Below, in pieces: positions 30,250-63,994 of a DNA stretch of 64,000 bases. Under the pieces are notes generated by a model that worked only from the letters and a program-made list of their open reading frames with translations, made no database searches and was not told the DNA's origin. Every line of letters begins with the position of its first letter. Position 1 is the first letter of the stretch. The position numbers and the translations under genes were made by a program. Origin of the DNA: Candidatus Campbellbacteria bacterium (lineage in GTDB: Bacteria; Patescibacteriota; Minisyncoccia; Phycocordibacterales; EsbW-18); the NCBI GenBank assembly GCA_016699465.1, contig CP064977.1, positions 478,503 to 542,502 on the forward strand. The letters run 5' to 3'.

Positions 30250-30304
30250 TCGTTACATACTGAATACAAAAAAGAATGGCATAGGCCATTCTTTTTTGAT
30301 TCTG

Positions 30305-31382: not shown

Positions 31383-31471
31383 ATTTTGTGAAGAGACCAT
31401 ACTCTAGCACGATAAAATCGTATACGCAAACGGCCCGTCGGAGTGCCACCACTCCGACGGGCCTTGTTGTT

Positions 31472-31924
31472 CTACTGAGGAGAAACCCACTCCACAGACA
31501 GTTCCTTCTCGCCCACCTGAAACGAGATGAGTGTCGAGTGAGGATGTGGACCAATGCCCGTCTCGAAGATCTTGATCCCCTCTATGGTCGCAACTTCATG
31601 AACGTAGCGCCAAAAGCCTGGCCCGCCGATATGCGGCGAAAACATACCCGCCGCCTCGTCTAGAATCCTACAGACAAGTTTCTGCTCAGGTTCCATCGGT
31701 ATCTTCTCCTTTTTTTGGTTACCCGCATGAGACACCGCGTAGAGATACGCTTCCTCGAATGCGTCACCCTTTGGAGTCCGGTTTTTGTACCCGAGCTCCT
31801 TAGCCCGCTCACGAAGTGAAAGTCCGAGCGCGCCGGCAATAGCACCATTGAGCGCAGCATTCCAAATGCGAATATTTTCTGGATCTGCATCAAGCCACTC
31901 GAGTACTTGATCCGGAAGCGGCAT
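31472..31924 (-). CDS. Hypothetical protein, GC-rich, with a strong RBS
   Basis: 150 aa. TTAAGGAGGTCGTTT precedes the ATG. Confidence 0.45.
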   Translation of the reverse strand: MPLPDQVLEWLDADPENIRIWNAALNGAIAGALGLSLRERAKELGYKNRTPKGDAFEEAYLYAVSHAGNQKKEKIPMEPEQKLVCRILDEAAGMFSPHIGGPGFWRYVHEVATIEGIKIFETGIGPHPHSTLISFQVGEKELSVEWVSPQ

Positions 31925-32057
31925 AAACGACCTCCTTAAGAACTACCCCTGGTGCGAAAGATACCAAGCTCCTAAAACTTTGCAAGTATTTTAAAAGACA
32001 GGCCCCAATGTGACAGTCAACAATTGTCACACTGGGGCCTGTTACGTCGCTGAGTCT

Positions 32058-32192
32058 TCACTTGCCGCGCTGGAGAAAGTTGCCCTTGACCCAGGGCTTG
32101 ACCACAGTTTCGCCCGCGCACCTCATGAACACCCAGAGCGCAATGATGAGAAGAACGACAACTAACGCGAGACCGGCGATTACCCATTTCAC
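32058..32192 (-). CDS. Possible 44 aa membrane micro-protein (GTG start)
   Basis: AGGGAGAAACCTAAA precedes a GTG start. The product is VKWVIAGLALVVVLLIIALWVFMRC.... GC-rich, and below the ORF-track length cutoff. Confidence 0.3.
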   Translation of the reverse strand: MKWVIAGLALVVVLLIIALWVFMRCAGETVVKPWVKGNFLQRGK

Positions 32193-32278
32193 TTTAGGTT
32201 TCTCCCTTGTGGTTGGTCCGCGAAATTGCAACTACCAACGAGAATATTAAAGTAATACTTTGTATTTATCAATACCTC

Positions 32279-37522: not shown

Positions 37523-37909
37523 CTACTTGCTCGCTCGTTTTCTATCTAAAAATCTCTGTAAAATAATTGCAGCTGCAGATGCGTCTATCATACTATTTGC
37601 TCCCGTAAATCGTGTTGCTTCCTGTGAGGAAAACCACTCGTGTTCAAACACCACTGGCACAGTAGTTTCTTTTTCAAGATTTTTTTTAAAATTCTGAATT
37701 TCAGGCATAATCACATTATCGTTTCCTTTCGTATCTGCTGAATATCCAAGCACAATAATATTCACATGCTCTTTTTGCGCAATCGCAACAATATCCGACA
37801 CAAGCGTGTGTGTGTTTTGCAAAACCTCCCGTGGAAACGCGAGCGTTTCACTGGTGTCCGACAGCGCGATACCTACGCGTTTTGTTCCATAATCAATGCC
37901 GAGGATCAT
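37523..37909 (-). CDS. ruvX: Putative pre-16S rRNA nuclease / Holliday junction resolvase-like RuvX (YqgF)
   Basis: MILGIDYGTKRVGIALSD N-terminal motif. Confidence 0.85.
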   Translation of the reverse strand: MILGIDYGTKRVGIALSDTSETLAFPREVLQNTHTLVSDIVAIAQKEHVNIIVLGYSADTKGNDNVIMPEIQNFKKNLEKETTVPVVFEHEWFSSQEATRFTGANSMIDASAAAIILQRFLDRKRASK

Positions 37910-38010
37910 GACAATATAACTATAATATACGACCACACATTCTAATAATTCACCTTTATAAAAACTTAGAGGGGTCGCGCATAGCGACCCCTTTCAAAAC
38001 CCATCTCTCA

Positions 38011-38532
38011 CTAATAACACTGAACGACAAAACCGACGATTTCGTAGTTCGAATCACCATCCACATCGTCTGTGAGCCAACGTGTTTGTGGTCCAACATA
38101 GTTGCACTTCAGACCAGGAGGACTCTTGGAAAGAAATGCGACCAACGAATCTCGATACCTGCAACCCGCCACACCGTCATACCAAGTGCATTCCTCTTTC
38201 GGGAGATAGTTCGGAACTGCTTGGATTCCACGGTCCTCACACTGGAGTGTATTTCCTTCAATGTCTCGTGGCGGAACCCCATCACTCTCTATCCATTCAC
38301 TACCAAGATTGATGAAGTTGCACAGCAGCTTGGGATTCTGTCTGCTGAAGGCAACAAACGAGGAGAAGAAGTCCCCATCAGCTGTTGGAAAAAAGTACAG
38401 ACTGTTTCCGTAGCTGATTGGAGCCTTCTCCTGTCGTACCAAATGGTTTCTGTGAATACTCTTCCCTTGTAATCCAACAAGAAGCATTAGAGCCATAAGG
38501 ATACTGGCAGCTAGAGCTGTTTTTTTTAACAC
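38011..38532 (-). CDS. Secreted cysteine-rich protein of unknown function
   Basis: Signal peptide MLKKTALAASILMALMLLVGLQG plus at least 8 Cys. It lies inside a segment flanked by a 96 bp duplication of the ruvX 5' end. Confidence 0.45.
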   Translation of the reverse strand: MLKKTALAASILMALMLLVGLQGKSIHRNHLVRQEKAPISYGNSLYFFPTADGDFFSSFVAFSRQNPKLLCNFINLGSEWIESDGVPPRDIEGNTLQCEDRGIQAVPNYLPKEECTWYDGVAGCRYRDSLVAFLSKSPPGLKCNYVGPQTRWLTDDVDGDSNYEIVGFVVQCY

Positions 38533-38573
38533 GACCTATTCCCCCTTGAGGTTTATGAAACGATCCAAAAGAA

Positions 38574-38729
38574 CTATACAATAAAAAAATACTGTTGCAA
38601 GTTAACCACCGGACCAAAAACACACCGGCCAATGTTTTGCAAAACCTCCCGTGGAAACGCGAGCGTTTCACTGGTGTCCGACAGCGCGATACCTACGCGT
38701 TTTGTTCCATAATCAATACCAAGAATCAT
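38574..38729 (-). pseudogene. Duplicated 5' fragment of ruvX, a truncated 51-codon reading frame
   Basis: 38634-38729 matches 37814-37909 at 92 of 96 nt and encodes MILGIDYGTKRVGIALSDTSETLAFPREVLQN before diverging. Its ATG overlaps the stop of the upstream gene as ATGA. Confidence 0.6.
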
Positions 38730-39034
38730 GTACGTGGAGGTTCCTCAACAGGTATATGGAGTAGTGCAATGACTTCAGCGGCAACTTCTTCGTAGTCACC
38801 TTTTCGGGCGCGTTCACGAATATCTTCACGTTCGGGAGAGTCGAGGGCTTCACTTATACGCCCTAAGTAATTTTGTCCCCATTCGTAGACAGCATTTGAG
38901 TTTGATGCAGCTGCACCAAGCGAGCGTTGAATGATACACCGCCGAAGCATGTTGCGATGAACAAGCTCGAGACGTCTCTCGGGTAATTCTGGTGTCACTG
39001 GCACCTCTGATGCATGATGTTCAAAACCTTCCAT
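38726..39034 (-). CDS. Hypothetical protein, GC-rich
   Basis: 102 aa. Translationally coupled (ATGA) to the ruvX 5' fragment. No RBS. Confidence 0.4.
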   Translation of the reverse strand: MEGFEHHASEVPVTPELPERRLELVHRNMLRRCIIQRSLGAAASNSNAVYEWGQNYLGRISEALDSPEREDIRERARKGDYEEVAAEVIALLHIPVEEPPRT

Positions 39035-40361: not shown

Positions 40362-40447
40362 GGAGGAGTCGGATAGTGGTTTATTCCAGCGCACTTGAAA
40401 TGCGCCGTGCCCACAAGGCACCGTGAGTTCGAATCTCACCTCCTCCG
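40362..40447 (+). tRNA. tRNA-Ser (TGA)
   Basis: Cloverleaf built by hand. Anticodon loop CTTGAAA and a long variable arm. Confidence 0.85.
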
Positions 40448-40449
40448 CA

Positions 40450-40491
40450 ACGATTCACAAGAAGTGCCCTTCGGCACTTCTTGTGAATCGT
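40450..40491. repeat. Perfect 19 bp stem hairpin with a CTTC loop immediately 3' of tRNA-Ser
   Basis: ACGATTCACAAGAAGTGCC-cttc-GGCACTTCTTGTGAATCGT. No U tract follows. Confidence 0.7.
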
Positions 40492-40502
40492 CTACTAGGG
40501 CG

Positions 40503-40518
40503 AGGTGAGATTCGAACG
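40503..40518. repeat. Inverted copy of the tRNA-Ser T-arm/acceptor segment (GAGGTGAGATTCGAAC)
   Basis: It is the exact reverse complement of GTTCGAATCTCACCTC from the tRNA-Ser gene. Confidence 0.65.
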
Positions 40519-40617
40519 ACGGAGCGATATTTTGTCAGTAGACAAAATCGCGAGTCGGTGCCCAGACAAATTTTTTTGACGACAAAATTTAGTCGCGGGA
40601 GAAAAACGTACTCGTGG

Positions 40618-41731: not shown

Positions 41732-41742
41732 GAAGCGACCGC

Positions 41743-42069
41743 TCATTTCTGAGCGGCCTTGCGCGCCTTCTGCTTGGCGAGCCACGTACGTGCCTGAGCC
41801 TTGGGGAGCTCGGATCCGGCGAACACCTTTCGCGGATTGAAAGGGGTTGGGAGACTGGTTCCACGCTGTCTCCAGACATCGAAGTGAAGATGGATGTTCT
41901 CTGCCGAACCCATGGCGGTCTCGAGAACCCCCCACACACAGCGGTAGAGGTTCCTTCTCTTCCCGTCCGAGCACTTCACTTCGTAACACAGATCCTCGTC
42001 GGCGGTCACCCTCCCGATCACTTCCGAAGTGTGTCCGGGCTTCGCTCTGATGTACCACACAGTACTCAT
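41743..42069 (-). CDS. Hypothetical basic protein, GC-rich micro-gene
   Basis: 108 aa. GAAAGGAGGAAGGAC precedes the ATG. Lys/Arg-rich C-terminus. Confidence 0.45.
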   Translation of the reverse strand: MSTVWYIRAKPGHTSEVIGRVTADEDLCYEVKCSDGKRRNLYRCVWGVLETAMGSAENIHLHFDVWRQRGTSLPTPFNPRKVFAGSELPKAQARTWLAKQKARKAAQK

Positions 42070-42152
42070 GTCCTTCCTCCTTTCACGATCGAATCTGGCG
42101 AGACAATACCACCGCACAAACAAAAACACCAGCGTGACGCTGGTGCCTTTTG

Positions 42153-42419
42153 TTATTTTGCTGTTTTTTTAAGAAGTTGCGCGAGACGTGACTTCTTTCG
42201 GGAAGCGGCATTTTTTTTGATAATACCGAGCTTTGCAGCCTTGTCGATAGCCTGGTAGGCATTCGCAAGTTTTGCTTGTGCATCCTTGGCACTACCTTTT
42301 CCTGTAAGATCTCGAATATCCTTAACCACTTCTTTCATTGCACGTGTGCGGCGCAAGTTAACCACACGTTTTCGTGCTGAACTGCGAAGTGCTTTTTTTG
42401 CTGCTTTAATTATTGGCAT
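42153..42419 (-). CDS. rpsT: 30S ribosomal protein S20
   Basis: MPIIKAAKKALRSSARKRVVNLRRTRAMK S20 N-terminus. Confidence 0.85.
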   Translation of the reverse strand: MPIIKAAKKALRSSARKRVVNLRRTRAMKEVVKDIRDLTGKGSAKDAQAKLANAYQAIDKAAKLGIIKKNAASRKKSRLAQLLKKTAK

Positions 42420-43058: not shown

Positions 43059-43086
43059 GGCCCGCGCGAAGTACTTCGCGCGGGCC
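43059..43086. terminator. GC-rich palindromic hairpin GGCCCGCGCGAAGTACTTCGCGCGGGCC
   Basis: A 13-14 bp perfect stem between convergent ruvA and the GC-rich ORF. A T-rich flank is present on the minus strand. Confidence 0.5.
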
Positions 43087-43092
43087 AAAATC

Positions 43093-43416
43093 TCAGGCCA
43101 GCCACTGCTTGTGGCGACGAGTGTGGAGTTCCCACTCCCTGTAAATTCCGGGGAGTTTTTCTTTCACCGTTGCAACGAACGCTCCCCGCAGAAAAATTCG
43201 CGGATAGCGCTCCACCACCTTTTTCCACAGACCGTTCGCGCCGTCGAGGGGGTCGAGAAACTGCGCTTCCGACGCGCCTGAAATCGCCCCTTCTTCAAGA
43301 GAGAGGACCACACTCCCCCAAATCTCTTGGAAAATTTTCATTCCCTCCTTTGCGATTGCCACTTCATCCGGCCCAACACGTTCGAGCCGGTCCAAACACT
43401 CTTTAGGTGTCAGCAC
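43093..43416 (-). CDS. Hypothetical protein, GC-rich micro-gene
   Basis: 107 aa with a GTG start. CAAAGGAGGAACATC precedes it, and a TTGACT-16-TACAAT promoter lies at 43458-43485 on the minus strand. Confidence 0.45.
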   Translation of the reverse strand: MLTPKECLDRLERVGPDEVAIAKEGMKIFQEIWGSVVLSLEEGAISGASEAQFLDPLDGANGLWKKVVERYPRIFLRGAFVATVKEKLPGIYREWELHTRRHKQWLA

Positions 43417-43528
43417 GATGTTCCTCCTTTGGCTTTACTGAGATTATTCTGAGAGAAATTGTACCAATAAAAAATAAGAAGTCAATATGACCGTTTTTCT
43501 TGGATTGTGCCTCTAAACGAAGGAGATA

Positions 43529-48159: not shown

Positions 48160-48188
48160 TTGACAAGAGCGCCACTTTCAAGTATTAA
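48160..48188 (+). promoter_or_regulatory. Sigma70-type promoter TTGACA-17-TATTAA
   Basis: Near-consensus hexamers with 17 nt spacing, 40 nt upstream of the 48228 ORF. Confidence 0.45.
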
Positions 48189-48227
48189 TGACGTCGGACG
48201 TGCAACAAACCAACCAAAGGAGGCACC

Positions 48228-48506
48228 ATGAAAATCGAAGCGCTCAAGGGACTGCCACTGAAACTCAAACTGGTTTCCTACGAAGTTCTGACGGACATGC
48301 TTGAGGGAGAGGTCGCCACCCTCAAAGCAAATCTGGAAGAGGCCCACAGAGAGCTGGTTCGACTCAAAGAAGCCAGCAATAACTCTGAGTCAGCCCTCAA
48401 GATGCAACACGACACGGCACTGGAGCAAGCCCGAACGGCAGAGGCGCGACTCGAAGAATCGCGTCGGTCGTTTGACACACTCATCGGCAAGATGTTCTCA
48501 GAATGA
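48228..48506 (+). CDS. Hypothetical coiled-coil protein, GC-rich micro-gene
   Basis: 92 aa with a heptad-rich sequence. CAAAGGAGGCACC precedes the ATG. A terminator follows at 48513-48545. Confidence 0.5.
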   Translation: MKIEALKGLPLKLKLVSYEVLTDMLEGEVATLKANLEEAHRELVRLKEASNNSESALKMQHDTALEQARTAEARLEESRRSFDTLIGKMFSE

Positions 48507-48512
48507 CATCCC

Positions 48513-48545
48513 AGGCCGCCCCACAAAGGCGGCCTTTTCTTTATA
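48513..48545 (+). terminator. Intrinsic terminator
   Basis: AGGCCGCC-ccacaaa-GGCGGCCT followed by TTTCTTTAT. Confidence 0.6.
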
Positions 48546-49574: not shown

Positions 49575-49603
49575 TTGACTATTTATATTATATCTTATAT
49601 AAT
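49575..49603 (+). promoter_or_regulatory. Consensus sigma70 promoter TTGACT-17-TATAAT
   Basis: A perfect -10 and a 5 of 6 -35 with 17 nt spacing, 30 nt upstream of the 49633 ORF. Confidence 0.5.
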
Positions 49604-49632
49604 GTAAAATAGAAAACAACAAAGGGGGTCCT

Positions 49633-49863
49633 ATGGACCATAGAATTACCGCCGACGATGGACAGGGTGGCGTCACTCACGTCATCATGTCGCGAGAACT
49701 GCTTTCCAAGATGGTTGGAAACGCCATTCTTGAATCTGTTCTTGCGTCAATGCAGATCGAGGGTGAAGAATTTCCCCCAGGAGTTCACGTCGAACTCCAA
49801 GAACCCGTCATCCTGCCGGAAGCGCTACTGAACACCGACAAGTCAGCTCCGCGGAAGCGTTAG
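49633..49863 (+). CDS. Hypothetical protein, GC-rich micro-gene
   Basis: 76 aa. ACAAAGGGGGTCCT precedes the ATG. A hairpin terminator with a T tract lies at about 49880-49915. Confidence 0.5.
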   Translation: MDHRITADDGQGGVTHVIMSRELLSKMVGNAILESVLASMQIEGEEFPPGVHVELQEPVILPEALLNTDKSAPRKR

Positions 49864-50005
49864 CAACACCGCGGTTCACGTATTATCCACCCCGTCACTC
49901 GAAAGTGTGATGGGGTGTTATCTTTTTACCCAAACAGTAAAAAACGTTTGTCTGAAAACGCATTTTGTTGTACAGTGTCTCTGTTTCCACTAGTAATAGA
50001 TATAT

Positions 50006-53773: not shown

Positions 53774-54118
53774 GTGTCGTTTATTGATGAAATGGTGGCA
53801 TGTGGTATGCTCACACGTAGACAAGAACTAATCTGGAGGAACCTACTTGTGGAACGGATACCCGGCGACAAAGACCCCATCCACGTCGCGTTTGGACTAC
53901 GCACCCTTGGGTGGAACCGCGAGATTCTCATCTGCATGTCCCAGAAAGAGCCTGTGTTCGAGAAACTCATGCTCCTCAAAGAGGTTGCCGTAGCCGGTCG
54001 ATGGAAGTCCGCTATCGCCAAGATGCGCAGTGCAGCACTTCGAGGCAAGCGGCCTCCGTCGCACACACACGTTGCCCTCGAGATTTTTTCGAGGATTTCT
54101 CACAAGGTCGCCCCGTAG
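53774..54118 (+). CDS. Hypothetical protein, GC-rich
   Basis: About 100-114 aa. No RBS. The GGTCGCC-ccgta-GGCGACC terminator with a T tract lies at 54106-54137. Confidence 0.35.
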   Translation: MSFIDEMVACGMLTRRQELIWRNLLVERIPGDKDPIHVAFGLRTLGWNREILICMSQKEPVFEKLMLLKEVAVAGRWKSAIAKMRSAALRGKRPPSHTHVALEIFSRISHKVAP

Positions 54119-54203
54119 GCGACCTTCTTCTTTTTTCTTCACTTTATTTGCTACACCCAGCACGTAGCTTTCAAAAAAGCTAAGTGCTGGGTACACTATA
54201 GGT

Positions 54204-55928
54204 ATGGTTATTTTTGACGAAGACAAACAAAATAAAAAATTTCAACAACTACGCGAACAAGAAGAAGAGGAGTTAATGCAGGTGCTTTCGCAAAAATATA
54301 CTCTTCCCTACGTTGACCTCTCGGCAACCCCCATTAACCCAGACGCACTCATTCTTGTTCCTGAAGCATTAGCTCGTGAGGGCATGCTTGCTGCTTTTGG
54401 AATAACTGGAAAAGTTGTCTCTGTTGCTGTACACGCACCAGAAAATACAGCCACAAAGTCCGCTCTTGCCGAGCTGGAAAATCGCGGATACAAAACAACT
54501 CTCTTTCTCACTTCAACAAAAAGTTTGGAATTTATTTGGGATAGATACAAAGACCTCTCCTACAGTGCCGGAAGCAAAAAAGGAATGCTTGATGTGGGTA
54601 GCGAAGACATGACTGAGCTCGTTTCCAAAGTTCGCCACCTTGAAGATATTAAAAAACTCTTTGAAGAGGCGCTTGGCATGCAAAAAACGCACCGCATTTC
54701 TCGTATCATTGAGGTGCTCCTTTCCAGTGCCCTTGCCACCAAAGCATCCGACATTCACATAGAACCCGAAGAAACCAGCGTGCGTATTCGTATGCGTCTG
54801 GACGGTGTGCTTGCTGACGTTGCAAATATTGACGCAGAAACATATCATCTCGTACTCTCTCGTTTCAAATTACTTTCTGCACTTAAACTCAACGTACAAA
54901 GTGAGGCGCAGGACGGACGATTCAGTATCAACTTCAAAGATGTCAGCATTGAAATTCGTACCTCTATTCTCCCAGGACAGTACGGCGAGTCTATTGTGAT
55001 GCGTATTCTCAACCCTGATTCTATTTCTGTGTCCATCGAAAAACTCGGCATGCGCGATGATTTGTTTGCGGTAGTAAATCAAGCGATTGCAAAACCAAAC
55101 GGACTCATTCTCACCACGGGTCCAACCGGTTCAGGAAAAACGACGACACTCTACGCGTTTCTCAAAAAAGTGCACACGCCCGACATTAAAATCATCACCA
55201 TCGAAGATCCAATTGAGTACCACTTGAAAGGTGTCGTACAAACACAAGTGGACAGCAATCACGACTACACATTCCAAAGCGGATTGCGCGCCGCACTTCG
55301 ACAAGACCCTGACATCATCATGGTGGGTGAAATTCGAGACAATGAAACGGCCGAAATTGCGATTCACGCCGCACTCACTGGTCACCTTGTGTTCTCAACA
55401 CTCCACACCAACTCCGCAGCGGGTGCATTCACTCGACTCATCGACGTTGGTATTAATCCCCGCATCCTTGGCTCTGCGCTCTCACTCGCACTTGCACAAC
55501 GACTTGTACGAAAACTATGCGAAACCTGCAAACAAGAAGTACCACTTGAGGGCGATGAGAAAGAAAAAATCGAACGCGTACTTGGTACGGTTGTGGATAC
55601 AACAAAAATTGCAGGACTTCAGCGAGAACGGGTGTGGCACGCAAGCGAAAAAGGATGTGAAGCCTGCAATGGTCTTGGCTACAAGGGACGCATGGGGTTG
55701 TATGAAGGAATTGTGGTGAACTCAGCAATCGAAGAAATTGTTGAATCATCACCGAGCGAGCGCGAGATTAGAAAAGTTGCCGACGCACAGGGATTGCTCA
55801 CTATGACCCAAGACGCAGTGATCAAAGTACTCGAAGGAAAAACAACCACGGACGAAATTATGCGCGTGGTTGATTTGAGCGTTGAAACAACAACCCCAGA
55901 AACTCCAACACCACTTCCTGAAATCTAA
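54204..55928 (+). CDS. Second type IV pilus / type II secretion ATPase paralog (GspE/PilB family)
   Basis: Walker A GPTGSGKTTTLY and GspE Asp/His boxes. The C-terminal zinc-finger-like CETC...CEAC motif is present. Confidence 0.85.
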   Translation: MVIFDEDKQNKKFQQLREQEEEELMQVLSQKYTLPYVDLSATPINPDALILVPEALAREGMLAAFGITGKVVSVAVHAPENTATKSALAELENRGYKTTLFLTSTKSLEFIWDRYKDLSYSAGSKKGMLDVGSEDMTELVSKVRHLEDIKKLFEEALGMQKTHRISRIIEVLLSSALATKASDIHIEPEETSVRIRMRLDGVLADVANIDAETYHLVLSRFKLLSALKLNVQSEAQDGRFSINFKDVSIEIRTSILPGQYGESIVMRILNPDSISVSIEKLGMRDDLFAVVNQAIAKPNGLILTTGPTGSGKTTTLYAFLKKVHTPDIKIITIEDPIEYHLKGVVQTQVDSNHDYTFQSGLRAALRQDPDIIMVGEIRDNETAEIAIHAALTGHLVFSTLHTNSAAGAFTRLIDVGINPRILGSALSLALAQRLVRKLCETCKQEVPLEGDEKEKIERVLGTVVDTTKIAGLQRERVWHASEKGCEACNGLGYKGRMGLYEGIVVNSAIEEIVESSPSEREIRKVADAQGLLTMTQDAVIKVLEGKTTTDEIMRVVDLSVETTTPETPTPLPEI

Positions 55929-56021
55929 AATACGTAGACAAAACGCAAAAGAAGCGTTCTAACGTACTAGAAGTTAGTGGTTAGTAGTTAAAAATTGGAA
56001 GTTAAAAAAACAAAAACTTTA

Positions 56022-56058
56022 CAAAACAAGAAAGCCACACTCCAGTGCATAGTGTGGC
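56022..56058 (+). terminator. Intrinsic terminator after the pilB paralog
   Basis: AAAGCCACAC-tccagtgcatag-TGTGGCTTT followed by CTTTATT. Confidence 0.55.
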
Positions 56059-56374
56059 TTTCTTTATTCATTAAAACGGGTACTATTGAGTGTAGGTAAA
56101 TTCAACAGAAGAGAAATCTCTAAGCAAAACCACATTGTTTGTTAAGGAGACTGTTCGCTATCTCGATGCGAGATCGAGACAACCAACGGATCCTCACCCA
56201 CTATGTGCATGTGACCATGACGTTTGCTTAGAGGTTTCTCGCCTGTTTGCTGTGTTAGCAAACAAAATTCTTTCAGCGAAACAAAAATCCCTCGTACGAG
56301 GACTTTTTGTGCGCCTACCCCTACCACATCTATTTCTTAAAAGAACAACAGTATCCTAGCATACCCACTCTGAT

Positions 56375-57400
56375 ATGTCAAGCCCCTCTCAAAAACCCGC
56401 CCGAGAGACTACGCCAGAGGTTCATGATGTCTTTTTGGATGCGTCATTACGCCCAACTCGTTGGGATGATTACGTGGGACAGGCGCAAACAAAAAATAAT
56501 TTGCATATTTTACTTTCAGCGGCAAAAGAGCGCGGACACGCACCTGAACACATCCTTTTTTATGGCCCCGCAGGTCTTGGAAAGACAACATTGGCACACC
56601 TTATTTCACACGAACTCGATGCTGCAATAAAAATTACGTCAGGACCTGCAATTGAACGCGTTGGTGACCTTGCTTCCCTACTCACCAACCTCTCCGCAAA
56701 TGATATTTTATTTATTGATGAAATTCACCGGCTCAATCCTGCAATTGAAGAAGTGCTATACCCTGCGATGGAGTCCGGACGTCTTGATATCATCATTGGA
56801 AAAGGTCCTTCCGCGCGCACAGTGCAACTAGATCTTCCTCCGTTCACACTTATTGCAGCAACGACACGCATTGCGCTTCTTTCCGCGCCGCTTCGTTCAC
56901 GTTTTTCTGGCGGGATGTTTCGACTCGAGTTTTATACTGACGAAGAAATTTTTACTATCCTCACACGTTCAGCACACTTACTTGGCGTTGAGGCTGATGC
57001 CGATGCACTCCATGAAATTGCACAACGAAGTCGCAGTACACCACGCACAGCAAACTATTTACTCAAACGTGCTCGTGATTATGCTCAGGTACACAAGAAA
57101 AAACTGTCCCTCCCCATTGTGCACGACGCACTCACACTCCTCGGCATCGATGATAAGGGACTGACACCCACTGATCAAAAACTCTTAGAACTCATTGTGA
57201 CGACGTTCAATGGTGGACCAGTTGGACTCTCAACACTCGCTGCTTCCCTTTCAGAAGACCCTGCAACCATTGAAGAGGTGTACGAACCCTACCTCATGCA
57301 ACTTGGCTTTATTGAACGCTCACCTCGCGGACGACTCATTACAAGCAAAGGTCGTGCCCACATTGATAAAGACAATTCATCTCAAGATTCGTTACTGTAA
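56375..57400 (+). CDS. ruvB: Holliday junction DNA helicase RuvB
   Basis: AAA+ motifs GPAGLGKTTLA and DEIHRL plus the RuvB C-terminal winged helix. Confidence 0.95.
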   Translation: MSSPSQKPARETTPEVHDVFLDASLRPTRWDDYVGQAQTKNNLHILLSAAKERGHAPEHILFYGPAGLGKTTLAHLISHELDAAIKITSGPAIERVGDLASLLTNLSANDILFIDEIHRLNPAIEEVLYPAMESGRLDIIIGKGPSARTVQLDLPPFTLIAATTRIALLSAPLRSRFSGGMFRLEFYTDEEIFTILTRSAHLLGVEADADALHEIAQRSRSTPRTANYLLKRARDYAQVHKKKLSLPIVHDALTLLGIDDKGLTPTDQKLLELIVTTFNGGPVGLSTLAASLSEDPATIEEVYEPYLMQLGFIERSPRGRLITSKGRAHIDKDNSSQDSLL

Positions 57401-57633
57401 CAGTGTGGGCGAGGTTAAATCTCGCCGCTACAGTTATCCACCGTAGAGATTGACCTAAAGAAACATCGCCTTTATCATAACCAATGGAAGTTCTTTGGGG
57501 AATGCCATCCTTAATTCCTAGGGGGATATGAAGCGTGCGCGAACGCAAGTTTGCGGTCATTGACCTGTTCGATGACACACAGGAAACACGCGGAAGCTGT
57601 CCCATGCGCCCGACGGACCAAAGGATTTCCACC

Positions 57634-57660
57634 AGCCGGACCACGTCCGGCTTTTTCTTA
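57634..57660 (+). terminator. Intrinsic terminator
   Basis: AGCCGGAC-cac-GTCCGGCT followed by TTTTCTTATC. Confidence 0.6.
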
Positions 57661-57674
57661 TCTAGCGATAACTA

Positions 57675-57703
57675 TTGACATACTCAAAAAAGTTAAGTAT
57701 TAT
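57675..57703 (+). promoter_or_regulatory. Consensus sigma70 promoter TTGACA-17-TATTAT
   Basis: A perfect -35 and a 5 of 6 -10 with 17 nt spacing, about 95 nt upstream of the 57800 ORF. Confidence 0.5.
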
Positions 57704-57799
57704 CCTACCAGAAGCTCTTCAGTGGACGCAATCTGTTTCTGTCATCACCCCTCGCGTCGTTCTAGTCAAAATGCAGGTCTACCGAGCAAGGAGCCCGCC

Positions 57800-58030
57800 A
57801 TGACCGCACCACCCAGCGCATCTGCTTCCGTCAACCACGCAGTCAACTGCACACTCACCGTGCTCCGTGGCAACATGAACCCAATCGCCACTTCGAACGT
57901 TGTCATCACACTCACGATGTACATGCGCGACCGAACAATGACGCCGTCTGAACAGCAAGAAGCATGGGGTCTCCTCCTCGCCCGCGTCCAGGAGGAAGGA
58001 CGGGAATACGAGAAGCAGCTCCATCCGTAA
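57800..58030 (+). CDS. Hypothetical protein, GC-rich micro-gene
   Basis: 76 aa. GAGCAAGGAGCCCGCC precedes the ATG. The CCCCGCC...GGCGGGG terminator with T7 lies at 58053-58088. Confidence 0.5.
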   Translation: MTAPPSASASVNHAVNCTLTVLRGNMNPIATSNVVITLTMYMRDRTMTPSEQQEAWGLLLARVQEEGREYEKQLHP

Positions 58031-58137
58031 AAATAGTCGCCTCTTCCCCAGGCCCCGCCCGGCTTACGCCGCGGCGGGGATTTTTTTGGTATACTCTCTA
58101 TGTCCCAACCACATTCTATATTCAATATTCTATTCAT

Positions 58138-58662
58138 ATGTCCGGCCACAATAAATGGAGTCAAATAAAAGAAAAAAAAGGAGCTACTGACGCAAAGCGC
58201 GGTAAGTTGTTTACCAAATTAGTAAAATTAATTAAGACTGAGGCCCGCATCACAAAGGGTGACCTCAATGCGCCAACGCTTAAAGCGGCAATAGAAAAAG
58301 CACGTACGGCGAATATGCCAAAAGATAACATCGACCGCGCAATACAAAGTGCGCAAAATACAGCCGCTGATGAAAAAGTTGTGTACGAAGCATTTGGTCC
58401 AGGTGGATGTGCGCTCATTATTGAAGGACTTACCGATAGTAAAAACCGGACTTCCCAGGAAATGAAACATCTTCTTTCAGAACACGATCTTGCACTCGCA
58501 GCCCCAGGTTCTGCAAGTTGGGCATTTACAAAAACACATGAGGGTTGGACACCAACAACCACCGTTCCCCTTTCAGAAGAAGATGGCGCAAAACTTTCTG
58601 CACTTATTGAAGAACTTGAAAACAACGACGATGTGCAGGAGGTGTATACAAATGCAGAATGA
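58138..58662 (+). CDS. yebC: YebC/PmpR-family transcriptional regulatory protein
   Basis: MSGHNKWSQIKEKKGATDAKRGKLFTKL N-terminus with full-length conservation. Confidence 0.9.
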   Translation: MSGHNKWSQIKEKKGATDAKRGKLFTKLVKLIKTEARITKGDLNAPTLKAAIEKARTANMPKDNIDRAIQSAQNTAADEKVVYEAFGPGGCALIIEGLTDSKNRTSQEMKHLLSEHDLALAAPGSASWAFTKTHEGWTPTTTVPLSEEDGAKLSALIEELENNDDVQEVYTNAE

Positions 58663-58761
58663 TGCAAAAACTCAAAATCCAAAATTTAAAGCTCAAAAAA
58701 TTATGAAATTATTACACTTTGAAACATTTTTTGGATTTTGTGCTTTGAACTTTGTGCTTTT

Positions 58762-59232
58762 ATGATTACTCTTGGTATTGATCCCGGCTACGACCGACTT
58801 GGTATTGCACTCCTTGAAGGCGACCGACAAAAACAAGTGATTATTTTTTCTGAGTGTTTTGAAACATGTTCAGCAGACGATTTTGAAACTCGCCTCCACG
58901 CCGCCGTGTCTCATGTGCGAGATATTTTACACACCTATACACCTGACAACGTTGCACTTGAAACACTTTTTTTTAGTAACAATCAAAAAACAGCTATGCA
59001 CGTGGCCGAAACACGTGGAGCACTTTTGTTTGCGATAACCGATGCTCACATTTCCGCCCATCAGTATGCACCACAGGCAATAAAGGTTGCTGTTGCAGGA
59101 AGCGGTCGTGGAAGTAAAGATGATATTGCCCGTATGCTCCACAAACTTCTTTCAATTCCAAATAAAAAAATACGCGATGATGAATACGATGCTATTGCTG
59201 TAGCCCTTACACACATGGTGAGTTGCAAGTAG
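58762..59232 (+). CDS. ruvC: Crossover junction endodeoxyribonuclease RuvC
   Basis: MITLGIDPGYDRLGIALLEG and the downstream acidic catalytic residues. The MCFELCAF extension is repeat-derived. Confidence 0.85.
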   Translation: MITLGIDPGYDRLGIALLEGDRQKQVIIFSECFETCSADDFETRLHAAVSHVRDILHTYTPDNVALETLFFSNNQKTAMHVAETRGALLFAITDAHISAHQYAPQAIKVAVAGSGRGSKDDIARMLHKLLSIPNKKIRDDEYDAIAVALTHMVSCK

Positions 59233-59270
59233 TATGTGGTAGCTAGTATGTGGTATGTGGTGTGTGGGTT
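59222..59270. repeat. Left flank: GTAGTATGTGG-unit low-complexity repeat, the inverted partner of 59683-59760
   Basis: (GTATGTGGT)n-like units, with the reverse complement present downstream of the four-helix-bundle gene. Confidence 0.6.
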
Positions 59271-59307
59271 TAGAAAAATTTTATGTACATGATGTATAGC
59301 GTTTGTT

Positions 59308-59682
59308 ATGAACACCATAAAAGATTTTACCGATCTCCGTGTCTGGCAATCGGCACACCAACTTGCCATTTTGTTATATAAAACAAGAGCACCTTTTCCA
59401 AAAGAAGAGGTGTTTGGTTTGGCCGGTCAACTACGACGAGCAGGAGTTTCTGTTTCATCAAATATTACTGAAGGTTTCGGGAGAAATTTTTCAAAAGAAA
59501 AGGTCCTGTTTTACCACATTGCACAATCTTCATTACGTGAAGTTTATTCACAAGTGTTGCTCGCAAAAGATATTGGATATGTACCCGAGCAAAATACCCA
59601 GCTCATTTTTGAACAAATTGTTTCAATAGGAAAAATGCTAACGGCACTCATCAAAACCGTTTCTTCCCGTCCGATTTCATAA
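59308..59682 (+). CDS. Four-helix-bundle protein (23S rRNA intervening-sequence protein family, TIGR02436-like)
   Basis: FDLRVWQSAHQLAILLYKTRAPFPKEEVFGLAGQLRRAGVSVSSNITEG signature. Flanked by imperfect inverted repeats of about 45-75 bp. Confidence 0.8.
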   Translation: MNTIKDFTDLRVWQSAHQLAILLYKTRAPFPKEEVFGLAGQLRRAGVSVSSNITEGFGRNFSKEKVLFYHIAQSSLREVYSQVLLAKDIGYVPEQNTQLIFEQIVSIGKMLTALIKTVSSRPIS

Positions 59683-59760
59683 CCCACATGCCACCCCCAC
59701 ATACCAACTACCACATACCACCCCTTGCATACCAACTACTACATACTTCCCCATATCGTT
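59683..59760. repeat. Right flank: CCACATACC-unit repeat, the inverted partner of 59222-59270
   Basis: Reverse complement of the GTATGTGG units. Related units occur at 240-300. Confidence 0.6.
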
Positions 59761-59882
59761 GTCCCCATATTATCCACGGTGGCCACATTGACCACTTGAA
59801 CTCTTGCGCATGATTTGATACAACAGTACTCACTTCTGCACTCACACTATTTTTGCAGGAGATTATCACATAACAGCAACCT

Positions 59883-60110
59883 ATGTTTGATGCAGACACA
59901 ACCTTGTCACCAACCATTACGGATGATGACGACCTGCTCTCTCCGTGGGACGACACCGACGATACCGCTCTTCCTGTAGAACCAGACGAAGAGGGGGGCG
60001 ACCTTGTCCCACCAAAACCACTCGATCCACTCAGTGAAGAGGACGAGGATGATGAGGAGGCCGATGAATTTGGCCTTTCTTCAGATGATTTTGGGGACGA
60101 AGAACTATAG
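59883..60110 (+). CDS. Possible highly acidic small protein (Asp/Glu about 40%)
   Basis: 75 aa. No RBS. GC-rich. It shares the bidirectional terminator AAAAACCACCC-ctca-GGGTGGTTTTT (60122-60150) with tyrS. The antisense strand has a Ser-rich ORF, so the coding strand is uncertain. Confidence 0.3.
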   Translation: MFDADTTLSPTITDDDDLLSPWDDTDDTALPVEPDEEGGDLVPPKPLDPLSEEDEDDEEADEFGLSSDDFGDEEL

Positions 60111-60148
60111 CGTTCTCTACCAAAAACCACCCCTCAGGGTGGTTTTTG

Positions 60149-61402
60149 TTATTCCTTCTTTTTTAGAACGCGTTTGACAGTAATTTTGAGAAATTTTTTC
60201 TTTCCTATACGAAGAATGACTGACTTAGCTATCGGCATTTTTACTTCCTGAATTTTTTCTCCCGTTTCTGCATCACGCAACCCTCCCCCTTCAACAAGGC
60301 GTCGTATTTCTGACTTTGAAGGAACAACACCTTCTTGTACAAGAACATCTTCTAGTGATGTTGAATCGCCAACAGATGCTTCTGGTATTGTTGTAGGAAG
60401 TTCTCTATTACTAAACACCTTTACAAACTCCTCTTCGGCTTTCTGTGCAGCATCAGGAGAGTGGTACATCGTTACAATTTCTCGAGCAAGACGCATTTTT
60501 AATTCTCGTGGACGAGATACGAATTCCTTTTGGAGGCATGCAACATCTTCTCCTGGTACGCGAGTACAAATTTCAAAATACTTCATCATCAAATCATCGT
60601 GCACACGCATTGTGTTCGCATACATGGTATTTGGTGTATCAAAAATATTGATAGTATTTCCCAAACTTTTACTCATTTTTCGCCCGTCTGTTCCAGGGAG
60701 AAGCTCCATAATCATGATGTCTTGTGGTTCTTGTTTGTAGTGTTGTTGTAACACTCGTCCTGAAAGCATATTAAACCGCTGGTCGGTCCCTCCAAGTTCT
60801 ACGTCGGCCTTAATTGCGACACTATCGTATCCTTGCATTAGTGGGTAGAGTGTTTCGCGTAGTGAAACGCGTCTTCCTGCAACTAATCGACGCTTAATAA
60901 TGTCTCGGGCAATAAAATCAGAAATTGAAAACTGGTCTGCTTGTTCACCAATCTCTGCAAACGATAATGTATTAAGCCATTTTGAGTTGTGATGCACTTC
61001 TGCTCGCGAGAGATCAATAATTTTTCCAATTTGCTTAAGATATGTTTTTTCATTTGCCTTCACTTCTTTTTGGGAAAGCATGGGGCGCTCCGACTCTTTA
61101 TCTGACGTGTCACCAATAACACCCGTCGCGTCCCCAATAATAAGTACTGGAATATGTCCAAGTTGTTGAAAATCACGTAATTTTAAGAGATTGTTAGCAT
61201 GACCAATGTGGAGATTTGAGCCTGTGGGATCAATACCGAGCTTTATACGAAGACGTTTCCCCGATTCGAGCTTCTTTTTAAGATTGTCTGCTGAAATTAT
61301 TTCAACAACACCTCGCAACAACACCTCTTGAATTCGTTGAGGGTCAGTTATAACAGCCGTGTGTGCTTTTTTTACTGCCATACATGTAGTAGTGTACCCC
61401 AA
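60149..61402 (-). CDS. tyrS: Tyrosine--tRNA ligase with a C-terminal S4 domain
   Basis: HIGH-like HIGHANN and KMSKS motifs. The start may be the internal Met (MAVKK, about 61381). Confidence 0.9.
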   Translation of the reverse strand: MGYTTTCMAVKKAHTAVITDPQRIQEVLLRGVVEIISADNLKKKLESGKRLRIKLGIDPTGSNLHIGHANNLLKLRDFQQLGHIPVLIIGDATGVIGDTSDKESERPMLSQKEVKANEKTYLKQIGKIIDLSRAEVHHNSKWLNTLSFAEIGEQADQFSISDFIARDIIKRRLVAGRRVSLRETLYPLMQGYDSVAIKADVELGGTDQRFNMLSGRVLQQHYKQEPQDIMIMELLPGTDGRKMSKSLGNTINIFDTPNTMYANTMRVHDDLMMKYFEICTRVPGEDVACLQKEFVSRPRELKMRLAREIVTMYHSPDAAQKAEEEFVKVFSNRELPTTIPEASVGDSTSLEDVLVQEGVVPSKSEIRRLVEGGGLRDAETGEKIQEVKMPIAKSVILRIGKKKFLKITVKRVLKKKE

Positions 61403-61513
61403 ATACTGGCGGGTTGGAAGTTTAGAGGTAAGAAACTTGAGGTAAGAAGCTATTGAACAAATTATAATGACTCCCTATACAAATAGAGCTATACTTGGTG
61501 TTATACATCACAT

Positions 61514-63994
61514 ATGAAACATACAAAACATAACCCTTATTACACAGCAACACTTTTTATTCTTGGCCTTGGTGCGTTTATCGGCGGAATTGTATTACTA
61601 TGGGCAGCAACACTCCGTCTTCCCAATTTTGATGTGTTTGAGGAACGAAAAGTAGAACAATCAACAAAGATTTACGACCGAACAGGTGAAGTGCTCCTCT
61701 ACGACTTGCATGAAAACGCACAACGAACAGTGATTCCCTTTGATTCAATTTCTCGACATATAAAAAATGCGACAGTTGCTATTGAAGACGCCGAATTCTA
61801 TCAGCACCACGGTATTAAATGGAGTTCGTTTTTCCGAGCAGTTCTCGTTAACATTCTTTCATTGCAATACAGTCAAGGTGGTTCAACTATCACCCAACAA
61901 GTGGTAAAAAACTCTCTTCTTACTCAGGAAAAAACAATCTCGCGAAAAATAAAAGAGTGGGTACTCGCACTTAAGCTAGAAAAAAATCTTTCGAAAGATG
62001 AAATTCTTAACCTATATCTCAATGAAGCGCCCTACGGAGGAAGTTTGTACGGTGTTGAAGAAGCAAGTCAGGGCTTTTTTCATAAAAGTGCCAAGGATGT
62101 GACTCTCGCTGAAGCTGCCTATATTGCTGCACTACCACAAGCGCCGACATTCTATTCTCCATACGGCAACAATGTAGACAAACTCGAGAGCCGAAAAAAT
62201 CTTGTGTTGAGTCGTATGCTCGAAGACAAATTTATTACTCAAGAAGAGTACGACGCGGCAAAAAAAGAGGTTGTTGCGTTCAAACCTCGACCAGAAAAAG
62301 GACTTCTTGCTCCTCACTTTGTATTTTATGTTCGCCAATACTTGGAACAAAAATATGGACAGACTGCACTTGAAGAAGATGGTCTACGTGTCATCACAAC
62401 TCTTGATTACGAACTACAAGAACAAGCTGAAAAAATTGTAAAGGAAGGCGCGTTTGAAAACGAAGCAAAATTTAAAGCAGAAAATGCTGGACTTGTAGCA
62501 ACTGACCCAAAAACAGGACAAATTCTTGTAATGGTTGGTTCGCGTGATTACTTTGACACAAAAATTGACGGTAATGTAAATATTGCAACCGCAAAACGAC
62601 AGCCTGGTTCTGCGTTTAAACCGTTTGTGTATGCAACCGCATTTAAAAAGGGACTTACACCCGCAACGGTTCTCTTTGATCTTCCTACACAATTCTCAAC
62701 ATCGTGTTCTGTACAAAGCACTCAAAGTGCCTCTCCGTGTTATTACCCAGAAAACTACGATGGAAAGTATCGTGGACCAATGAGTATTCGTGACGCACTC
62801 GCACAATCGGTAAACATTCCAGCAGTTAAAGCTCTCTATATTGCCGGAATTTCTAATTCTATTAAAACCGCGCGCGATATGGGTATTTCAACTCTTACAG
62901 ATGCATCGCGTTATGGACTTACCCTCGTTCTTGGAGGAGGAGAAGTTACACTCCTCGATCTCACAAGTGCCTACGGTGTTTTTGCAAACGAAGGCGTGCG
63001 CAACGAAACAACGGCTATTCTTAAAGTAGAAAAATCTGATGGAACTATCTTGGAAGAATTTACCGCACACCCTTCTCGTGTCCTTGATCAAAATATTGCA
63101 CTGCAACTATCAGATGTCTTGTCTGACAACGTTGCTCGTACTCCCGCATTTGGTTCTGCGTCTGGGTTATATTTTCCAAGTACTGATGTTGCGGTAAAAA
63201 CAGGAACAACGAACGATTATCGCGACGTGTGGATTATTGGATATACACCCAATATCTCTGTTGGTGCGTGGGGAGGAAATAATGACAACACCTCTATCGA
63301 CAAAAAAGTTGCTGGTTTTGTTATTGCGCCACTCTGGCATCGTTTTATGGAAGTTGCTCTACAAAAATATCCTGATACCTCATTCCCTACTCCTACAGTA
63401 TCAAAAACAACAAAACCAATTCTCAATGGAATTTGGCAAGGGGGTGTCGCTCATGAAATTGATTCACGAACCGGTGCAACCGCAACACAAAGCACACCTG
63501 ACGTATTTCGTAAAACAGAAGTAGTACAAAATGTTCACTCTATTTTGTATTGGATAGACAAAGATGATCCAACAGGTCCTGTTCCAAGTAACCCTGGTTC
63601 TGACCCTCAATACGCATACTGGGAATATCCCATTCGATCATGGGCCGCACAACATGGATATGTATCTGGCGCAAAAACTATTGTTACTAGCCCCCTATCT
63701 TCTTCACAAACAAGCACTAATTCAACCTCTATAGGTATTTCAGGGCTCGCATCGTCGTATGAAAAAAATGACACTATTTCTCTTAAACTTACACTACCCG
63801 CTGACTACACAAATACAACCACCGACGTATTTATAGATTCTACTCAGTTGTCTGATGTTACTCGAGGGTCATATTCTCTTTCATTTCCTATTCAATTTCT
63901 TTCACCATCTGAAACAGTACACGCACTATATCTCGTCTTCTACAAAAAAGACGGTTCAAAAGTAGGTATCTCAAAAACATTTACCGTTAAGTAG
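61514..63994 (+). CDS. Penicillin-binding protein 1A (bifunctional glycosyltransferase/transpeptidase)
   Basis: N-terminal TM segment, GT51 motifs (EDAEFYQHHG, GGSTITQQ) and the transpeptidase SxxK/SxN/KTG pattern. Confidence 0.9.
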   Translation: MKHTKHNPYYTATLFILGLGAFIGGIVLLWAATLRLPNFDVFEERKVEQSTKIYDRTGEVLLYDLHENAQRTVIPFDSISRHIKNATVAIEDAEFYQHHGIKWSSFFRAVLVNILSLQYSQGGSTITQQVVKNSLLTQEKTISRKIKEWVLALKLEKNLSKDEILNLYLNEAPYGGSLYGVEEASQGFFHKSAKDVTLAEAAYIAALPQAPTFYSPYGNNVDKLESRKNLVLSRMLEDKFITQEEYDAAKKEVVAFKPRPEKGLLAPHFVFYVRQYLEQKYGQTALEEDGLRVITTLDYELQEQAEKIVKEGAFENEAKFKAENAGLVATDPKTGQILVMVGSRDYFDTKIDGNVNIATAKRQPGSAFKPFVYATAFKKGLTPATVLFDLPTQFSTSCSVQSTQSASPCYYPENYDGKYRGPMSIRDALAQSVNIPAVKALYIAGISNSIKTARDMGISTLTDASRYGLTLVLGGGEVTLLDLTSAYGVFANEGVRNETTAILKVEKSDGTILEEFTAHPSRVLDQNIALQLSDVLSDNVARTPAFGSASGLYFPSTDVAVKTGTTNDYRDVWIIGYTPNISVGAWGGNNDNTSIDKKVAGFVIAPLWHRFMEVALQKYPDTSFPTPTVSKTTKPILNGIWQGGVAHEIDSRTGATATQSTPDVFRKTEVVQNVHSILYWIDKDDPTGPVPSNPGSDPQYAYWEYPIRSWAAQHGYVSGAKTIVTSPLSSSQTSTNSTSIGISGLASSYEKNDTISLKLTLPADYTNTTTDVFIDSTQLSDVTRGSYSLSFPIQFLSPSETVHALYLVFYKKDGSKVGISKTFTVK

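Follow-up and report, generated by a model that had tools for sequence, protein, structure and literature searches.

A small orphan protein gene, possibly beside a structured RNA, in a lineage-specific insert between ruvB and yebC of a Patescibacteria genome

What occupies the 737-nucleotide (nt) gap that separates ruvB from yebC in a Candidatus Campbellbacteria genome? In the 64,000-nt stretch analyzed here (contig CP064977.1, positions 478,503 to 542,502; hereafter the window, numbered from its first letter), this gap holds a G+C-rich, structured segment 1 (57428–57659), followed by a segment 2 with an open reading frame (ORF) for 76 amino acids (aa), ORF76. An earlier note, made from the sequence, had likened the layout either to an attenuator or leader-peptide-controlled unit or to two stacked mini-cassettes. 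It is the second description that holds: two terminator-bounded segments lie in tandem, and the downstream one reads as an autonomous unit of promoter, Shine-Dalgarno (SD) sequence, ORF, and terminator. The leader-peptide unit fails every defining feature tested. We therefore consider it likely that the ORF76 unit is an ordinary unannotated accessory gene within a lineage-specific insert, possibly accompanied by a small structured RNA, and that no attenuator is involved.

Results

Segment 2 carries the signals of an autonomous gene

Its predicted signals, all on the + strand, identify segment 2 (57675–58087) as an autonomous monocistronic gene. The segment opens with a sigma-70-type promoter found by consensus match (TTGACA-17-TATTAT, 57675–57703), agreeing at 11 of 12 positions. 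The earlier note had both hexamers and their spacing right and called the promoter perfect; near-consensus is the better word, because the −10 box differs from TATAAT at one position. For 11/12 matches at a 17-nt spacing, 0.47 would be expected in the 64 kb; three are present, a count that none of 100 shuffles reached. An AAGGAG motif (57788–57793), read from the sequence as the SD, lies 6 nt 5′ of the ATG of ORF76 (57800–58030, stop included; GC 0.58), an orphan-family ORF delineated with the help of a homologue described below. Downstream follows terminator 2, CCCCGCCCGGC-ttac-GCCGcGGCGGGG (58053–58087; hairpin 58053–58079), whose 11 base pairs (bp) are all G-C and which continues with an A and seven Ts (ΔG −24.7 kcal/mol). 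Both the SD-bearing, GC-rich ORF and its strong terminator are thus as the earlier note had reported them. Terminator-like sites number eight in the interval 55800–59400 vs 3.5 expected.

The start region of ORF76 is unusually unstructured on the + strand (z +2.0 to +2.4), which is not the case on the minus strand, and the predicted mRNA (57708–58090) shows no excess of structure (z −0.30). On these signals, transcription from 57675–57703 would place a leader of ~90 nt upstream of ORF76, and the 11-bp GC hairpin with its U7 would halt it ahead of yebC.

ORF76 and a single distant homologue form a new protein family

An exhaustive HMMER search of 1.84 billion (1.84e9) cluster representatives returned two matches to the ORF76 protein: P0001, which is ORF76 itself from another assembly, and P0002, the sole distinct homologue (83 aa; 41% identity over 69 residues; E 4e-5 library-wide). 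P0002 is encoded in locus L081—the most distant of five relatives compared in the clade (YebC 71%, TyrS 59%)—and occupies the same junction there, with ruvB immediately before it and yebC-ruvC-acidic ORF-tyrS further on. The L081 cassette has its own promoter (TTGACA-16-TGaTATAAT; 12/12 plus the TG), which begins 5 nt after the ruvB stop, an AAGGAG 6 nt 5′ of the second ATG (at 348), and a terminator 3′ of the ORF; it has no leader segment.

The comparison of the two genes bears on whether ORF76 encodes a protein at all; the alternative is a frame that is open by chance in GC-rich DNA or belongs to a structured RNA. In favour of this alternative, long open frames come easily at high GC, ORF76 is overlapped by antisense ORFs (81 and 132 codons), and it matches no family, fold, or name. 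Yet identity between the two sequences is 0.56/0.61/0.37 at the three codon positions (~0.3 expected from composition), and 16 of 30 identical residues are encoded by different, synonymous codons, arguing for purifying selection on the protein. Moreover, the amino-acid alignment has one gap only, one codon long, a canonical SD stands at 6 nt in both genomes, and RNA structure is not in excess over the ORF76 transcript. We thus give the chance-frame explanation almost no credence, and take ORF76 and P0002 to constitute a new, almost unsampled two-member family of small proteins.

Only the exhaustive HMMER search recovered P0002; other searches for ORF76 relatives returned none. The ORF76 protein had no match in Pfam; its best hits in PHROGs (E 0.12) and NCBIfam (E 0.053) were both below cut-off, and the best among PDB sequences had E 0.44. 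A word-indexed protein search, with ORF76 alone or as a profile with P0002, yielded no homologue. The same was true of two scans of metagenomes and one of viruses, and the whole gap had no match in phage or plasmid DNA. Exact-protein look-ups of ORF76, YebC, RuvB, RuvC, PilB, P0001, and P0003 (RuvB, 99%) found no record. A tblastn match of ORF76 within the window itself (31991–32044; E 0.12) falls outside any coherent ORF and was discarded.

An AlphaFold2 (AF2) model built from the two-sequence alignment folds into a three-helix bundle (helices 7–25, 28–42, and 49–74; pLDDT 71, pTM 0.42), for which Foldseek found no match at E ≤ 0.001 in PDB and BFVD (best E about 1.5). We infer that the protein would be an abundant, cytoplasmic three-helix bundle. 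The residues conserved between the two members (Y41, M42, D44, R45, T46, M47, T48, and Q53, E54, A55, W56) lie at the end of helix 2, in the loop, and at the start of helix 3; this patch, Y41-M-x-D-R-T-M-T48 plus Q53-E-A-W56, probably binds a partner.

Terminator 1 is not part of an attenuator

Segment 1 ends in terminator 1, AGCCGGAC-cac-GTCCGGCT (57634–57659 on the + strand; hairpin 57634–57652), an 8-bp stem with six G-C pairs followed by T5 (ΔG −13.8 kcal/mol). This is the hairpin with T tract that the earlier note had seen there, and it was the top terminator-like hit in our site scan. The 11-codon small ORF (sORF) that the note had pointed to after ruvB likewise exists (MKRARTQVCGH; ATG 57528 to TGA, 57528–57563 on the + strand, with an SD-like AGGGGGAT at 57520–57527), with no support beyond its presence. 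As the structured RNA directly abuts terminator 1 and the sORF lies inside it, one might suppose that sORF translation or, in a riboswitch-like leader, ligand binding sets terminator 1 and thereby controls ORF76 and possibly yebC-ruvC.

The predicted RNA structure speaks against such control. The terminator 1 stem pairs at a probability of 0.87–1.00 without any rival pairing, and in both contexts modelled the probability that its 5′ arm finds a partner upstream is ≤0.001; hence, there is no antiterminator of the kind that the earlier note had proposed to look for. In addition, terminator 1 sits upstream of the near-consensus ORF76 promoter, and so cannot attenuate the ORF76 transcript. The sORF is ill suited to the role of a leader peptide: its SD-like motif ends 0–2 nt from the ATG, SD and ATG are mostly base-paired (unpaired probability mostly 0.01–0.6), and the peptide is without a repeated codon or regulatory codon run. 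When conservation in relatives was assessed, ORF76 proved to have its homologue in L081 and the sORF was missing from all relatives compared; we judge the latter to be a chance ORF. As to a riboswitch, the segment 1 interval matched nothing in Rfam 15 at gathering score or at E ≤ 1, and even a permissive search (321 nt, E ≤ 10) returned only noise at E ≥ 6.4. Finally, the homologous L081 cassette lacks such a leader, and segment 1 is missing from loci L082, L084, and L087. The lack of an antiterminator, a promoter between terminator 1 and ORF76, an unsuited sORF, and the leaderless cassette of L081 together lead us to reject the attenuator, which we regard as extremely improbable.

Segment 1 may encode a structured RNA

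Segment 1 has no credible coding capacity. Besides the sORF, it contains a 47-codon frame (GTG 57535, with an SD-like AGGGGGA 8 nt upstream) that crosses terminator 1 and stops ~20 nt past its T tract. Its G+C-rich, ORF-less part (57485–57631, + strand) is predicted to fold into a multibranch core enclosed by a 14-bp closing helix (57485–57498 / 57618–57631; pair probability 0.56–1.0), with terminator 1 starting two nt further on. Two G·U pairs make the closing helix specific to the + strand. The minimum free energy (MFE) of the segment together with its terminator is −70.2 kcal/mol (z −3.99 vs shuffles), and that of the segment is −56.4 kcal/mol on the + strand vs −46.1 on the minus strand. 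Upstream, a promoter-like site (TTGACC-17-TATCAT, 57450–57478, + strand; 10/12 consensus match) predicts a start near 57485—the very 5′ end of the closing helix. That segment 1 is a genuine structured small RNA (sRNA) of ~170 nt, starting at about 57485, is a real possibility, if somewhat short of an even chance.

Several observations weigh against this sRNA. Promoter-like sites matching at 10/12 occur in the window at chance level (8 observed vs 8.06 expected); the stability of segment 1 is only about 1.8 standard deviations (sd) beyond that of equal-GC genome windows; and its boundaries were picked after the helix had been seen. Furthermore, searches of 90 related loci with blastn, nhmmer, tblastx, and a single-sequence covariance model detected no homologue; the highest-scoring partial matches reached at most 14.5 bits and were located elsewhere.

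Segment 1 may otherwise be the 3′ tail of ruvB or the remnant of a decayed cassette. In the latter case, segment 1 would be without a function of its own—a decayed promoter-SD-ORF-terminator cassette or an insertion scar, whose terminator now serves ruvB. Its layout is that of the intact cassettes of this genome, with a promoter-like site, the SD-like AGGGGGA before GTG 57535, and a terminator; the 47-codon frame runs through the terminator as a broken gene would show; and both the want of a homologue and the modest stability relative to genome windows agree with decay. Against a remnant stand the strand-specific 14-bp closing helix, which starts exactly at the predicted transcript start, the z of −4.0 vs shuffles, and the absence of translated similarity to any cargo of the junction. 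We consider a functionless remnant rather unlikely, and a little less plausible than the sRNA. In its present position, terminator 1 would end transcription or read-through from ruvB and shield the strong promoter behind it.

Were segment 1 an sRNA, it might act on its neighbour, repressing ORF76 in trans or in cis much like an RNA antitoxin. The two units are adjacent, the candidate possesses a promoter-like site, a terminator, and a stable structure, and 57552–57560 (UGCGGUCAU) is perfectly complementary over 9 nt to 57800–57808 (AUGACCGCA), which includes the ORF76 start codon. However, by our own calculation chance alone would produce ~1 inverted repeat of 9 nt over a length of 781 nt, which is the number observed; the 9-mer is located within predicted helices and not in a loop; L081 has the protein cassette without the RNA; and the protein is neither hydrophobic nor toxin-like, nor are there ToxI-type repeats. 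Repression of ORF76 by segment 1 thus seems quite improbable.

We also entertained, and set aside, a number of further identities for segment 1. A tmRNA, 6S RNA, signal recognition particle (SRP) RNA, or RNase P RNA was suspected at first, given the G+C-rich island and a 'UCCACCA' immediately 5′ of the hairpin, yet ARAGORN and Rfam found none of them in the gap. Segments 1 and 2 are not duplicates of each other, since the alignment of their starts is weak (p about 0.02) and due to the pre-selected promoter hexamers, and their ends do not align (p 0.15); an 18-nt repeat linking both terminators is 78% identical and was taken as chance. The ORF-less elements in the corresponding gaps of L084 and L012 share no similarity with segment 1, and tblastx gave nothing for a pseudogene of the relatives' junction cargo. 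As for a miniature inverted-repeat transposable element (MITE) or insertion sequence (IS)-type element, the 14-nt arms of segment 1 match at 12/14 positions as DNA; segment 1 occurs only once in the 64-kb window, is not found in the related loci, and has no direct repeat at its flanks.

The gap is a lineage-specific insert at a hypervariable junction

The source genome belongs to the Patescibacteria (candidate phyla radiation, CPR), of the Paceibacteria type; its RuvB is at most 72% identical to those of GTDB species representatives, the best matches all being CPR metagenome-assembled genomes (MAGs). The local gene order is pilB, ruvB, the 737-nt gap, yebC, ruvC, a gene for a 23S rRNA intervening sequence (IVS) protein, an acidic 75-aa ORF, and tyrS (minus strand). 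The genes next to the gap are ruvB (56375–57400, + strand; 341 aa; Pfam RuvB_N, AAA_lid_4, RuvB_C, E 2e-69) and yebC (58138–58662, + strand; 174 aa; Pfam TACO1_YebC_N, Transcrip_reg), with ruvC (58762–59232; Pfam RuvC) downstream of yebC.

Relatives closer than the GTDB set were located by a RuvB search, and it is these and further loci (designated by L numbers) that we compared. The contigs of the closer relatives retain the order polA-tsaE-x-pilB-ruvB-[ ]-yebC-ruvC-x-tyrS-PBP, and with synteny conserved on both sides, the insertion can be delimited within a few bases. In L082, the closest relative (YebC 97.7%, RuvB 92%, flanks 84% at the nt level), the ruvB-yebC gap is only 94 nt long, and blastn of window 54000–62500 against it gave aligned blocks that stop at 57426 and restart at 58137, arguing that 57427–58136 is lineage-specific cargo (710 nt in the window vs 67 nt in L082). 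The left edge is marked by a hairpin next to ruvB, GGCGAGGT-taa-ATCTCGCC (57408–57426, + strand; 8 bp without a T tract; folded ΔG −12.2 kcal/mol), which is kept in L082 and L083 as GGGCGAGGTTAAACCTCGCCC and is the last sequence in common with L082. Near the right edge, within the interval that does not align with L082, TGGTATACT (58087–58095, + strand) resembles an extended −10 element for yebC and overlaps the T tract of terminator 2. This element is shared with L084, in which TTTTTTTGGTATACT recurs (5332–5346), though the two inserts are otherwise unrelated.

What lies between ruvB and yebC differs from lineage to lineage. GTDB relatives mostly have gaps of ~10–60 nt, and that of L087 (RuvB 82%) measures 54 nt. 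L084 (RuvB 87%) has its gap filled by an unrelated, G+C-rich, ORF-less element of 314 nt with its own terminator; L090 (RuvB 80%) carries a 191-aa orphan gene at the ruvB junction; L081 contains the cassette with the 83-aa homologue plus a 187-aa orphan; and L002, L003, L012, and L017 hold still other cargo. The ruvB-yebC spacer is thus a hypervariable slot that has been refilled repeatedly with differing cargo. Given that this cargo is unrelated in other lineages, the position of ORF76 beside ruvB, yebC, and ruvC is no evidence of a link to recombination.

Some of these junctions deserve a description of their own. The L084 element (L084:5027–5340; also in L085 and L086) has 60% G+C, a long-range closing helix, a folding z of −2.8, and no Rfam family, and is possibly a novel non-coding RNA (ncRNA). 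The L090 cassette (L090:4052–4888) stands between two perfect copies of a 26-nt palindrome, TTCTCTAATTCGCGCGAATTAGAGAA, the first of which overlaps the ruvB stop; it has a TTGACA-17-TATTGT promoter and a 12-bp GC terminator, and the arrangement looks like an insertion with duplication of a hairpin target. In L012, a GTDB MAG labelled Saccharibacteria (RuvB 68%, among the closest GTDB matches of the window), the ruvB-yebC gap is 680 nt long and ORF-less (L012:4931–5611); it contains a 17-nt long-range inverted repeat (GCCCGCACACTTACTTT / ACAGTAAGTGTGCGGGT), and Rfam at gathering score found nothing in it.

Elsewhere around the locus, the IVS protein gene (59308–59682; Pfam PF05635) constitutes an insertion of its own (window 59259–59735), the corresponding place in L082 comprising ~5 nt. 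The acidic 75-aa ORF (59883–60110) has a 78-aa counterpart in L081. Upstream, the pilB-ruvB spacer yielded a sub-threshold Rfam match to the Enterococcus sRNA RefA9 (56002–56061; 33.3 bits vs a gathering score of 49, E 0.015), which is essentially a terminator-like hairpin 3′ of pilB; the same spacer folds stably on the minus strand (56101–56250, z −4.1).

Composition and distribution point to exchanged cargo

The G+C content at third codon positions (GC3) of ORF76 is 0.68, vs 0.32–0.37 in its neighbours and a mean of 0.379 (sd 0.076) over 49 long ORFs of the window. P0002 departs in the same direction, with a GC3 of 0.87 vs 0.53–0.63 in its L081 neighbours. We considered codon optimization for high expression as the cause and dismissed it because ribosomal protein L19 has a GC3 of only 0.30. 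The family is missing from four closer lineages and present in the more distant L081. The GC3 excess in two hosts, the patchy occurrence, and the variety of cargo at the slot lead us to favour the view that the ORF76 unit is an accessory element exchanged horizontally, and not a partner of the Ruv proteins. At this copy, neither a flanking duplication or direct repeat nor an integrase or transposase was found. Horizontal transfer has been reported to be frequent in Patescibacteria; in 125 genomes of this group, genomic islands and transferred genes span up to 13% of genome length (PMC12455944).

ORF76 has company within the window, which contains about twelve G+C-rich islands and at least five orphan cassettes built alike, with a TTGACA-type promoter, SD, short high-GC3 ORF, and strong terminator. 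G+C-rich orphan ORFs of such build are found at 49575–49920, 48160–48535, 43059–43485 (minus strand), and 41737–42247 (minus strand), and further ones, all on the minus strand, at 1212–1902, 31433–31924, and 32000–32231. These seven encode 57–196 aa with a GC3 of 0.56–0.73 (genome mean 0.38); most have a strong terminator of their own, several a TTGACA-type promoter or strong SD, and none has a Pfam family or is paralogous to another or to ORF76. At 37813–38730, a 98-nt direct repeat (97% identical), which represents the first 98 nt of a ruvX/yqgF-like gene, flanks an 820-nt insert; this insert encodes a 173-aa orphan with a signal-peptide-like N-terminus (38011–38532, minus strand), with SD AAGGGGGA and its own terminator.

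The similar cassettes in the window, the palindromes bracketing the L090 cassette, the 98-nt duplication, and the occurrence of the ORF76 family at an identical junction in two genomes that are not nearest relatives, each time with GC3 raised by about 0.3, point to a broader reading: that ORF76 is one of a class of small, G+C-rich, promoter-in/terminator-out mini-cassettes moving between Patescibacteria genomes. A short-homology or hairpin-targeted (Campbell-type) mechanism would insert such cassettes beside hairpins or gene ends 3′ of housekeeping genes. As the ORF76 insert is without a flanking duplication, this broader reading stays speculative, and we hold it to be improbable.

Further G+C-rich and repeated sequences of the window are recorded here in their own right. 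Between 40362 and 40810, the 3′ end of a tRNA-Ser (TCTCACCTCCTCCGCA) is repeated at 40618 (100%) and 40782 (77%), which may be att-like duplications from integration at the tRNA; 40376–40575 holds the 150-nt stretch whose predicted fold, on both strands, is the most stable of the window (z about −6.7). A G+C-rich island of 900 nt (29901–30800), which lacks convincing ORFs, holds tRNA-Leu (30304–30388) and, overlapping it, a very stable fold (30151–30375, z down to −5.2), for which Rfam at gathering score reports the tRNA alone. Lastly, a 33-nt hairpin-containing repeat (GAATTTTTGTaacaACAAAAATTC; 94% identical; 12374–12406 and 14393–14425) flanks a gene on the minus strand (12522–14270), and 12376–12525 ranks with the most stably folding parts of the window.

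Discussion

Some points count against our account of the ORF76 gene and its insert. All promoters, start sites, and terminators named here are predicted from consensus. The ORF76 frame stays open for 83 more codons upstream, and P0001, from a 45-kb contig of a public Logan assembly, is called as a protein of 152 aa from ATG 57572. We nevertheless rejected the 152-aa form (window 57551–58030) and take the 76-aa form as the product, because the extension would have to cross the promoter and SD as well as terminator 1, and because in L081 the frame closes 10 codons upstream; we read P0001 as an over-extended annotation caused by the 83-codon stop-free stretch. With a family of only two members, the AF2 model is weak. 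As to its origin, if the common ancestor of L081 and the window genome already had the gene, vertical inheritance with three or four losses accounts for the distribution as well as two gains do, and under vertical descent the persistent GC3 excess stays unexplained.

The small genomes of Patescibacteria abound in short ORFs that lack an explanation. ORF76, an un- or mis-annotated gene, is here fixed as a 76-aa protein with textbook signals, founding a family of two, and spacers between housekeeping genes such as ruvB and yebC emerge as slots that take up self-contained accessory units foreign in composition. Should the cassettes indeed be mobile, this would describe a route by which these reduced genomes try out new small proteins. 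Expression and interaction studies would have a clean candidate in this locus, which involves no new regulatory mechanism.

How does the locus compare with known systems? Leader-peptide attenuators of the trp, his, leu, or pheA type likewise present a short ORF, then a G+C-rich hairpin ending in a T tract, and after these a structural ORF; here, in contrast, the terminator is 5′ of the promoter of that ORF, no antiterminator forms, the SD of the sORF is 0–2 nt from its start, and the sORF has no codon runs and is not conserved. Type I and III toxin-antitoxin systems also place a small structured RNA beside a small protein gene, in ToxIN with a terminator between the two. At the present locus, the protein is non-hydrophobic, not ToxN-like, and under its own promoter, the 9-nt complementarity is at chance, and the candidate RNA is missing in L081. 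There are no tandem RNA repeats, and such tandem or direct repeats as do occur are short and at chance level; the protein, modelled as a soluble three-helix bundle, matches no toxin family, and no promoter-like site was found on the minus strand of the interval.

Integron cassettes are usually promoterless, have attC at their end, and lie beside intI. They resemble the ruvB-yebC arrangement in that a small single-ORF unit stands in tandem with another, hairpins mark the unit boundaries, and heterogeneous cargo occurs at one site. They differ in that each unit here has its own promoter, or in segment 1 a promoter-like site, and a Rho-independent terminator with T tract; the Pfam columns of the L081–L090 gene tables list no integrase domain, the window as a whole not having been screened for integrases. 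Stand-alone or 3′ untranslated region (UTR)-derived sRNA genes share with segment 1 the absence of an ORF, a high G+C content relative to the genome, a stable fold on the + strand only, and a canonical terminator. Segment 1 has neither a homologue nor an Rfam family, and its promoter-like site, whose predicted start falls on the closing helix, is of a quality that occurs at chance frequency. Finally, although the ORF76 unit is very small (about 0.4 kb), shows no integrase, transposase, or flanking repeat, and comes from an unsampled donor pool with only two family members among 1.84e9 proteins, it resembles the accessory small-protein genes of intergenic hot spots (genomic islets) in being patchily distributed, atypical in composition, self-contained, and inserted between housekeeping genes at a junction whose cargo is lineage-specific.

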